From IMG/VR virus record IMGVR_UViG_2695420897_000008: DNA of 39,495 nt. One strand, given 5' to 3'. The notes beneath the pieces were generated by a model. It saw nothing but the letters and a program-made list of their open reading frames with translations, was not told the origin of the DNA and searched no databases. Shown piece by piece: positions 1,131-2,497 of this stretch. The position numbers and the translations under genes are program-made. Origin of the DNA: a virus. Lineage: Duplodnaviria; Heunggongvirae; Uroviricota; Caudoviricetes. The number at the start of each line of letters is the position of its first letter. The stretch's first letter is position 1.

Positions 1131-1210
1131 AACCGTAGCACGTCGTATGCAAGAACGTGCCACGGCTGGCTGATAAGCTTGTAAAAATATTGAACAGGGA
1201 GTGGAGCATT

Positions 1211-1858
1211 CTATGAAGCTAATTTGTTTAATTTCATTTGTAGTGACTTTACTTCTTGGTCGATAATGTCGAATCCCTTATTGACAGCATCTCTTAGCTC
1301 TGCATCAATATTTTTTATCCCTTGAGCATAATCTACCATTACATTTATTTTTGCATCATGTAATCTCTTATACATGGTTTTATCTTTGTTATTGTCTGCC
1401 ATGCCAATAAGGATTTTTTCATAATCCTCAATGAGTTTGTTGTTTCCTTTAAATGATTGTATTAATGAGCGTGAATATGTGTATATGTTAATTATTGAGT
1501 CTCTAGCAGAATCATTTAGTTTTGCAATGACATTCGCATTTTGCTCATAGAATGTGAAATTATCATCCCCTACAGGGAATGTAAGAATCAACATTTGTCC
1601 CGGTTTTATATTATCAATGTGTGTTTTCATCCTTTTATTATATAAATTGATTAGGGTGAAAACTTCTCCCTTAACTCCTTTTAATACTGAAAGTTGTAAT
1701 TCAAGGGATTCTCTTTCTGTCTCTACTTTAGACAGCTTAGCTTGTTGGGTAACTCCTTTTAGGGTAAACCATCCGCCAATAAGAGTACCAACTAGAGCTG
1801 TGAGGGAGGAGGATAACCATCCAGGTATGCTATTTAAAAGATTACTAAATTCACTCAT
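1211..1858 (-). CDS. Hypothetical membrane-anchored protein, 215 aa (N-terminal TM helix, predicted coiled-coil rest); AT-rich cargo
   Basis: Long ORF in an AT-rich block between the invertase and yfhH; hydrophobic segment IPGWLSSSLTALVGTLIGGWF near the N-terminus; no recognisable catalytic motif. Confidence 0.55.
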   Translation of the reverse strand: MSEFSNLLNSIPGWLSSSLTALVGTLIGGWFTLKGVTQQAKLSKVETERESLELQLSVLKGVKGEVFTLINLYNKRMKTHIDNIKPGQMLILTFPVGDDNFTFYEQNANVIAKLNDSARDSIINIYTYSRSLIQSFKGNNKLIEDYEKILIGMADNNKDKTMYKRLHDAKINVMVDYAQGIKNIDAELRDAVNKGFDIIDQEVKSLQMKLNKLAS

Positions 1859-1916
1859 TATAAGTACTCGCTAATATTGAACGATATATATATCAAATTA
1901 TTATAAAACTCGTCAG

Positions 1917-2258
1917 CTACTGGAGAAGGCTACCTGAACTTCGATCTATTCCTGCATCCATATAGTTGATGGTCTTCTGGAGCTCTTCGATTAGGGCAAC
2001 AGCTTTTGCTCGAGAAATGCATATTAGTTGATCCGGAAATTCTTGTAAGGGCCAGTTTGGTATACAGGCCATGTTATCAGTGAAGGATGCAGACAAGTAA
2101 ACTTCATTGGTAACCAGAGAATAGCTTACCTCAAAATTGGTGAGTTCCGGCAAACTGCTAACGTTTGACTCTTTTCTGCGCATAATATTATCCATGACTG
2201 TAATTATGTACAGGTGATGGTCTTCAATTTCGAAGAGGGAGTCAAGGGGGAGTCTCAA
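1917..2258 (-). CDS. Hypothetical small protein (up to 113 aa; start uncertain: TTG 2258, ATG 2195 or ATG 2183); AT-rich cargo
   Basis: ORF co-oriented with and 58 bp upstream of 1211-1858; weak RBS at every candidate start; a G8 tract (2278-2285) sits just upstream. Confidence 0.35.
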   Translation of the reverse strand: MRLPLDSLFEIEDHHLYIITVMDNIMRRKESNVSSLPELTNFEVSYSLVTNEVYLSASFTDNMACIPNWPLQEFPDQLICISRAKAVALIEELQKTINYMDAGIDRSSGSLLQ

Positions 2259-2497
2259 ATGAACCGTTATAGAAAAAGGGGGGGGATCTTTGTGTTGCTG
2301 AACTTATGCAAAATTTTTTTGCACCATAAATCCAACAACACATTCAATAACACATTGCTGTATCACTATGAAAATAAATGTGTTTTTATTTGATTTCACA
2401 CATATCACAATTGATGCATTTTTTAGTGATTAACAACGCCATAAGGAAACTCTCAAAACAACACAAACCGGGCGGGCATTATACGCGCATTCTTTAC

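Follow-up and report, generated by a model that had tools for sequence, protein, structure and literature searches.

A probable solitary cargo gene of an undescribed membrane-protein family at the right end of a SEN34-like prophage

In the Escherichia coli K-12 cryptic prophage e14, mcrA adjoins the invertase gene pinE. Small inner-membrane proteins that are encoded by prophages and expressed in lysogens include lambda RexB, P22 SieA and SieB, HK97 gp15, and lactococcal AbiP. In phage P2, the interval between gpA and gpQ is the old/tin defense hotspot (Rousset et al. 2022, PMC9122126). The locus analyzed here lies at positions 1131 to 2497 of a 39,495-nucleotide stretch of viral DNA (IMG/VR record IMGVR_UViG_2695420897_000008), which in its entirety is referred to as the window. 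An earlier note on this DNA had described two co-oriented open reading frames (ORFs) between a tail-fiber invertase and the chromosome, and had proposed that they form a two-gene defense or exclusion cargo. Both ORFs, here termed gene A and ORF B, were confirmed on the minus strand at this location. We found that they are unrelated genes which do not constitute a module, and that gene A is very probably mobile cargo that stands alone and represents a membrane-protein family not described before.

Cargo slot, family, and predicted topology of gene A

From position 1000 to 2600, the window was 99.9% identical to E. coli O103:H2 strain 12009 and related Shiga toxin-producing (STEC) and enterotoxigenic (ETEC) E. 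coli genomes. The window thus derives from an E. coli chromosome, and its positions 1 to 2394 form the right-hand end of a prophage of the SEN34-like (Brunovirus) type, inserted in the 5' end of yfhL. Its counterpart in strain 12009 is a prophage of approximately 42.7 kb, of which the window region is likewise the right end. There, genes for terminase, head, sheath-tail, and baseplate are followed by the invertible tail-fiber segment, frameshifted pinE, a 215-amino-acid hypothetical protein, and yfhH. Relatives of the prophage are Salmonella phage SEN34 (genus Brunovirus) and the induced coliphages vB_EcoM-611R5, 606R2, and 683R1.

Two main alleles of the cargo slot, which is bounded by ORF B and the invertase gene, were seen in E. 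coli. Gene A (positions 1211 to 1858, minus strand; 215 amino acids), which the Prokaryotic Genome Annotation Pipeline (PGAP) labels hypothetical protein WP_001288820.1, was present in 80 of 5,426 E. coli genomes as a single copy and always at the locus seen in the window. The alternative allele, found in 44 genomes, encodes an unrelated hypothetical protein of 281 amino acids (WP_001039127.1). It matched nothing in Pfam or PADLOC and is a second cargo gene without assigned function in the same slot. Apart from these genomes, phage vB_EcoM-611R5 encodes the protein; its loci include L012 (2869 to 3714) and L002 (3133 to 3978). One E. coli genome carries a serine acetyltransferase gene in the slot in addition, and the occupant in SEN34 is an O-acetyltransferase. 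The slot varies among otherwise near-identical prophages, showing the variable presence that is typical of morons. The second property of a moron, a base composition distinct from that of its carrier, was found for gene A as well. Its GC content is 33%, compared with 42 to 47% in the adjacent prophage (47% for window positions 1 to 1130), 46 to 53% in the yfhH region (300-nucleotide composition windows), and 50% in the whole window. Homologs of gene A keep a GC content of 33 to 37% irrespective of host, in loci of 39 to 58%. The foreign composition previously ascribed to both genes holds for gene A alone, because ORF B, at 43% GC, matches the rest of the prophage. The view of the region as a cargo slot at a prophage end, similar in position to mcrA/pinE of e14, which the earlier note had put forward, is supported. 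Homologs of gene A lie in recognized defense hotspots (see below).

Gene A and ORF B are co-oriented, lie 58 nucleotides apart, are probably cotranscribed, and occur together in all 80 E. coli genomes that bear gene A, as would be expected of a functional two-gene system such as a sensor with its effector or a toxin with its antitoxin. Their wider distribution speaks against such a system. ORF B occurs without gene A in the 44 E. coli genomes with the alternative allele, in Salmonella and Citrobacter, and in four other phage types. Conversely, gene A homologs stand without ORF B in every one of approximately 20 contexts outside E. coli: none of about 35 such loci has an ORF B homolog within 8 kb, and no neighboring ORF is common to 20 distinct contexts. 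The two genes thus do not co-occur across lineages. In addition, prophages with one or the other E. coli allele become homologous again at approximately position 1902, 15 nucleotides beyond the stop codon of ORF B and inside the AT-rich, 58-nucleotide spacer (1859 to 1916, minus strand) that leads to gene A, so that a recombination boundary separates the two genes. On these distributions, the two-gene module, which we regard as very improbable, was rejected. What had been taken for a two-gene cargo consists of a positionally fixed phage gene and an independently swapped cargo gene.

Gene A belongs to a large, uncharacterized family that has no described member. Its close family consists of 216 clusters (90% identity), most of them 55 to 75% identical to the window protein, from Escherichia, Salmonella, Enterobacter, Citrobacter, Klebsiella, Dickeya, Pectobacterium, Serratia, Yersinia, Providencia, Morganella, Proteus, Pantoea, and other genera. 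Many residues are invariant across 18 aligned members, and E65, Y73, F101, Y126, N139, N140, and Y177 are invariant throughout the family. When 1.84 billion representative proteins were searched with a profile, 647 clusters (50% identity) were retrieved at an E value of ≤1e-3 and 231 at ≤1e-10, most of them 190 to 230 amino acids long. In line with the earlier note, no known family was recognized in Pfam, PHROG, NCBIfam, or PADLOC. The best Pfam-A score was 12.5 bits against a cutoff of 27, with no match above the gathering threshold (SieB, LemA, and EzrA included), and the best NCBIfam score was 12.7 bits against a cutoff of 79. The PHROG scan yielded no match, and a profile search against Protein Data Bank sequences found none below an E value of 0.1. 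Pfam revealed no recurrent family among 62 diverse relatives; the diverse alignment (A2) was too divergent to serve for locus search. No paper that names WP_001288820, WP_001288816, WP_001288821, WP_001253100, WP_001253101, WP_001039127, or the motif GDDNFTFYEQ turned up in literature searches, and none of the accessions or motifs is present in the DefensePredictor supplements.

Seven of 185,579 species-representative genomes bear gene A, and DNA similarity to its homologs is limited to the coding sequence, ending within a few bases of its ends. Both observations point to sporadic, horizontal acquisition. In each of the 80 E. coli genomes, one alignment spanned the whole length of gene A, with 95.2 to 99.8% identity. 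With pairwise ratios of nonsynonymous to synonymous substitution rates (dN/dS) of 0.11 to 0.19, it is under purifying selection. ORF B is conserved across genera, with 61 clusters of homologs and a family of its own, phrog_17793. Both ORFs are therefore real genes, as had been supposed. The frameshifts in neighboring pinE and in one head gene of the prophage would fit a region of inert, decaying DNA, a view that the full-length copies in 80 of 80 genomes, the purifying selection, and the conservation of ORF B render scarcely credible. Among the 40 matches listed, gene A is annotated as an ordinary hypothetical protein. Annotated forms of 139 amino acids were considered as a sign of decay and rejected, as RefSeq gives the full 215 amino acids in O55:H7.

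The AlphaFold2 model of the gene A protein (predicted local distance difference test [pLDDT] score of 83, predicted template modeling [pTM] score of 0.71) is all-helical; the earlier note had described a membrane-anchored coiled-coil protein. A hydrophobic N-terminal helix is continuous with a long helix that extends to residue 82. It is followed by a loop (residues 83 to 115) bearing FPVGDDNFTFYEQNA, which is invariant in the close subfamily (approximately 60% identity or more), and by two long helices (116 to 154 and 160 to 214) that complete a three-helix bundle. Fold searches with this model retrieved generic bundles only. Sequence identity to the matches is 8 to 12%. The matched domains are soluble proteins or lie in the periplasm, whereas a cytoplasmic location is predicted for the gene A bundle, and the likeness is one of generic fold only. 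Across 62 sequences, the mean number of lysine and arginine residues in the 15 positions on each side of the membrane helix was 0.40 before and 3.06 after it; positive charges were more numerous after the helix in 58 sequences and less numerous in none. Longer relatives carry a typical signal peptide and a segment of 40 to 75 amino acids ahead of the same helix. Given this charge bias and these signal peptides, the protein is predicted to be a single-pass inner-membrane protein with its N terminus outside: an outside tail (residues 1 to 13), a Gly-zipper membrane helix (approximately 14 to 33), and a conserved cytoplasmic three-helix bundle (34 to 215). The close family shows no variation at the small residues A21, G24, G28, and G29 of the membrane helix, and conservation of G24 across the whole family is at least 90%. 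Motifs of this kind are often tied to helix-helix association, which may hold here too.

Genomic contexts and possible functions of gene A

To characterize where homologs of gene A reside, we consider their neighbors. In a P2-like prophage (L048), the homolog (7974 to 8627) lies between gpA (5020 to 7236) and a gene for a PifA-like KAP NTPase (9161 to 11302), with gpQ and gpP on the opposite strand. L048 is the sole homolog found in the gpA-gpQ hotspot, and the window copy sits in a different phage type. Another P2-like prophage harbors a homolog between gpS and gpV. In lambdoid prophages of Providencia (L017, 5013 to 7657), a cI-type repressor gene is followed by a gene for a 385-amino-acid HSDR_N protein and then by the homolog. 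As a two-gene array, these last two take the place that rexAB has in lambda; PADLOC returned no match for the HSDR_N protein. A Citrobacter prophage occupies icd, the site of e14, and its homolog adjoins the icd fragment at the prophage end, beside the attachment (att) site. The same prophage also bears acetyltransferase, DinI, UmuDC-like, and SRAP genes. In Klebsiella and Pantoea, homologs adjoin the integrase of small elements that encode capsid and adaptor proteins themselves; the Klebsiella element is satellite-like. Other homologs adjoin HigBA in an Enterobacter islet and CcdAB in a Dickeya integrative and conjugative element. A relative with 26% identity adjoins a ThsB-like TIR protein (PDC-S66) and a DUF5677 protein. 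The neighbors at nine further loci comprise three integrases, P2 structural genes, a defense-type reverse transcriptase, and PDC-S18/S20 candidates.

This pattern is what would be expected of a stand-alone defense or exclusion gene, as far as association can tell, and we put the chances that gene A has an anti-phage function at about even. Homology to a housekeeping or structural phage function, which the earlier note had named in advance as a finding that would overturn its reading, was looked for and none was found. Defense or exclusion cargo is therefore a plausible reading, better supported than before, for one gene and not for two. In such a role, gene A would protect the lysogen from other phages. 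Abortive infection is the preferred mechanism: the cytoplasmic bundle at the inner face of the membrane would recognize a phage product, whereupon the Gly-zipper helices would associate and the membrane would be compromised. Less likely, the protein may block genome entry at the inner membrane, i.e., act in superinfection exclusion.

Several results weigh against a defense function. Homology searches gave no support for it, and no catalytic or pore motif is evident in the protein. Neither gene A nor ORF B matched PADLOC-DB 2.0 at an E value of ≤1, and the 62 diverse relatives gave only scattered single matches to PADLOC (E ≥ 1e-4), which is chance level. Several of the contexts are chromosomal islets with no recognizable defense genes. 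Expression in the lysogen is only predicted; no match passed a sigma-70 scan of the minus strand upstream of ORF B or gene A, and at 33% GC gene A could be silenced by H-NS. Finally, guilt by association fits other functions of lysogenic conversion as well.

One such function would be that of a fitness gene unrelated to defense, encoding a scaffold or stress protein of the inner membrane with effects on envelope physiology, on division, or on interaction with the host. Mobile elements would then carry the gene because the host profits from it. The same slot holds O-antigen acetyltransferases in related phages. Moreover, the fold and topology of the protein, an N-terminal anchor with a cytoplasmic helical bundle, resemble those of scaffolds such as EzrA, to which one family member showed a weak match (E = 0.0064). 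The Enterobacter copy is widespread, with 700 contigs for its 90%-identity cluster and the protein indexed in 1,503 blocks of the contig collection, and appears stably chromosomal. However, the position beside PifA in the P2 gpA-gpQ hotspot, the position downstream of cI, and the TIR and toxin-antitoxin neighbors are more typical of defense, and the distribution of gene A is extremely patchy. We therefore regard lysogenic conversion as a rather unlikely explanation, though not one to be neglected.

A membrane-anchored, prophage-borne protein might also serve the phage itself, in lysis timing, DNA entry or exit, or the maintenance of lysogeny. The gene for DinI, a modulator of the SOS response, often follows ORF B homologs in the same slot, which would accord with this. 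Yet homologs of gene A are also found in an integrative and conjugative element, in chromosomal islets, and beside a TIR gene, where no phage life cycle would be served. The gene is dispensable among near-identical prophages, and a tblastn search of 50,697 deposited phage records returned no match. A phage-serving role is accordingly improbable.

Integration site, transcription, and neighboring features

The junction between prophage and chromosome is placed at 2394/2395 by sequence comparison. Positions 2395 to 2600 were matched by 5,426 of 5,426 complete E. coli genomes, of which only 140 match further left. The placement follows from this universal homology and from an 18-bp att core (2395 to 2412; AATTGTGATATGTGTGAA in minus-strand reading), which is the only sequence that both prophage ends have in common. 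The chromosome had formerly been thought to resume at approximately 2440 to 2465. The core falls within codons 11 to 16 of yfhL and is repeated exactly (18/18) at the integrase end. Its attP form is preserved in a metagenomic viral contig from IMG/VR (L033, 7425 to 7708), in which a phage-encoded yfhL mimic is fused directly to the arm bearing ORF B. This excised junction, from the phage type with gene A and ORF B, indicates that phages of the SEN34-like type bearing gene A are probably still active and circulating.

Integration splits yfhL, a ferredoxin gene. The orphaned 5' stub (2386 to 2442, minus strand; MALLITKKCINCDMCE-IK*) starts with an ATG at 2442 and consists of 16 host codons (2442 to 2395) followed by two phage codons and a stop. 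At the integrase end, a full-length hybrid yfhL is annotated (WP_000054752.1), of which the first 10 codons (MSLLITKRCI) and the upstream region are phage DNA. In this hybrid gene (L023, 26413 to 26673), the phage-supplied codons differ at residues 2 and 8, and the promoter region is phage encoded. What remains at the other end is the truncated 18-codon ORF with the native yfhL promoter, directed at the terminal genes of the prophage (window 2386 to 2497).

A TATAAT at 2478 to 2483 (minus strand), 36 nucleotides upstream of the yfhL ATG, is the presumed -10 element of this promoter. It had been tentatively attributed to the downstream host gene, but it lies upstream of the yfhL stub and now faces ORF B and gene A rather than yfhH. 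A simple scan for promoters and terminators gave matches no more numerous than in shuffled sequences. Inspection by eye showed no more than a weak promoter-like match, CTGACG-N18-TATATA, in the spacer that precedes gene A; the Enterobacter and Dickeya copies of gene A, also read by eye, have a good promoter, TTCAAT-N18-TATAAT/TATAGT, approximately 45 nucleotides upstream. Between the yfhL stub and gene A, neither the terminator scan nor folding revealed a terminator-like structure. Beyond gene A, folding of the minus strand from 1225 to 1125 with ViennaRNA placed a terminator-like, GC-rich 14-bp hairpin followed by TTTCATTT at 1131 to 1167. It lies approximately 45 nucleotides past the gene A stop codon, overlaps the end of pinE, and has a T-rich tail. 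The simple scan probably missed it owing to its 9-nucleotide loop. Of the parts of an autonomous transcription unit, a terminator-like hairpin was seen for gene A, and no convincing promoter was seen in the 58-nucleotide spacer. The simplest reading would be a single transcription unit that runs from the yfhL promoter or a phage promoter through ORF B and gene A to the hairpin.

We hypothesized that the integration event itself couples gene A to lysogeny. Integration would give yfhL a phage-made promoter and N terminus, and transcription of ORF B and the cargo from the host yfhL promoter would be confined to the integrated state. Gene A would then be expressed in the lysogen by read-through from the orphaned host promoter, from a promoter upstream of ORF B, or from both, and the transcript would end at the hairpin. 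The combined proposal, in which gene A would be the founding E. coli member of a widespread single-gene anti-phage family and its expression would be tied to lysogeny through promoter capture, is put forward only tentatively. The approximately 650 clusters (50% identity) of this family would share a signal-anchored, cytoplasmic three-helix bundle and a Gly-zipper membrane helix.

Two features stand out in the phage arm between the att core and ORF B (2184 to 2394, minus strand). One is an AT-rich inverted repeat (TGCAAAA-AAA-TTTTGCA), and the other is a homopolymer tract, C8T5 (2273 to 2285, minus strand), approximately 100 nucleotides upstream of ORF B. The length of this tract varies between otherwise near-identical genomes (C7 to C10 and T3 to T6), which could be sequencing noise or the mark of a slippage-prone regulatory tract.

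ORF B (1917 to 2183, minus strand) encodes a conserved phage protein of 88 amino acids and is the first gene inward of attP/attR. A length of approximately 90 to 113 amino acids had been estimated earlier. Residues 26 to 113 of the 113-amino-acid ORF matched positions 1 to 88 of the 91-position phrog_17793 profile (E = 1.6e-44). From this span, the uniform length of the Salmonella and Citrobacter homologs (87 to 88 amino acids), and the alignment of homologs, the start was assigned to M26; the 88-amino-acid protein is annotated in some RefSeq genomes. The structural model, of moderate quality (pLDDT of 76, pTM of 0.53), comprises three beta-strands and a C-terminal helix and bears a weak structural likeness to the COMM and PUR-repeat folds. 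phrog_17793 carries no known function. Homologs of ORF B are the first gene beyond int-attP in five unrelated temperate phage types, represented by SEN34, the E. coli prophage of the window, Escherichia phage Fostie, Yersinia phages YeP1-3, and Stenotrophomonas phages BUCT708/709 (homolog loci L059, 3522 to 4008; L060, 3495 to 4026; L061, 3501 to 3749; and L003, 5001 to 5267). In Fostie and YeP1, dinI directly follows. The conserved att-proximal position suggests a role linked to the integrated state or to SOS/lysogeny control.

On the other side of gene A, the pinE-type serine invertase gene (577 to 1130, plus strand) marks the end of the invertible tail-fiber module. It is a pseudogene in two overlapping frames, annotated as frameshifted by PGAP. 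Alignment to the intact pinE of O55:H7 CB9615 located the lesion, a 1-nucleotide deletion, near 875 in a run of G residues, and the tail-fiber switch is probably locked in the window strain. pinE is intact in CB9615 and many other carriers; in the prophages with the alternative cargo, it stops after approximately 89 codons. The sole Rfam match, a subthreshold one to the Shigella small RNA CssrB (1108 to 1164; 31.7 bits against a gathering score of 76), overlaps the GC-rich hairpin that separates gene A from pinE; its probable source is a terminator that pin-type genes have in common on their downstream side.

Significance and comparison with known systems

Hypothetical cargo genes are common, and gene A has an unusually clear comparative signature. 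If it is protective, a compact single-gene family of 215 amino acids, missed by every current catalog, would be added to the defense repertoire. The family occurs in pathogens of the Enterobacterales (STEC O103, O45, and O55; ETEC H10407; Klebsiella, Enterobacter, and Providencia) and far beyond, and a cargo slot with two alleles that lack assigned function would be marked in SEN34-like prophages. If it is not protective, the supposed pair is still separated into a phage gene of conserved position next to att and a cargo gene independent of it, and the end of the prophage is placed exactly. The att architecture offers a directly testable case of a prophage that uses an orphaned host promoter for its terminal genes.

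Among the described systems, e14 is similar in that mcrA, like gene A, is a cargo or defense gene located between the tail-fiber invertase and the attachment site. McrA, however, is a soluble HNH restriction nuclease, whereas the gene A protein is membrane anchored and has no nuclease or other Pfam domain. With P2 old/tin and the P2/P4 hotspots (PMC9122126), gene A shares the character of an AT-rich, swappable cargo in a fixed slot of a temperate phage. It differs in having no sequence relation to Old, Tin, or the PADLOC 2.0 systems, and its anti-phage activity is only inferred. With regard to the small membrane proteins of prophages, the Providencia homolog in the region downstream of cI is rexAB-like by position, and neither gene A nor its relatives matched SieB or other Pfam models. 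In architecture, the gene A protein, predicted to be single pass with a 180-amino-acid cytoplasmic bundle, stands apart from the multipass RexB and the two-pass gp15.

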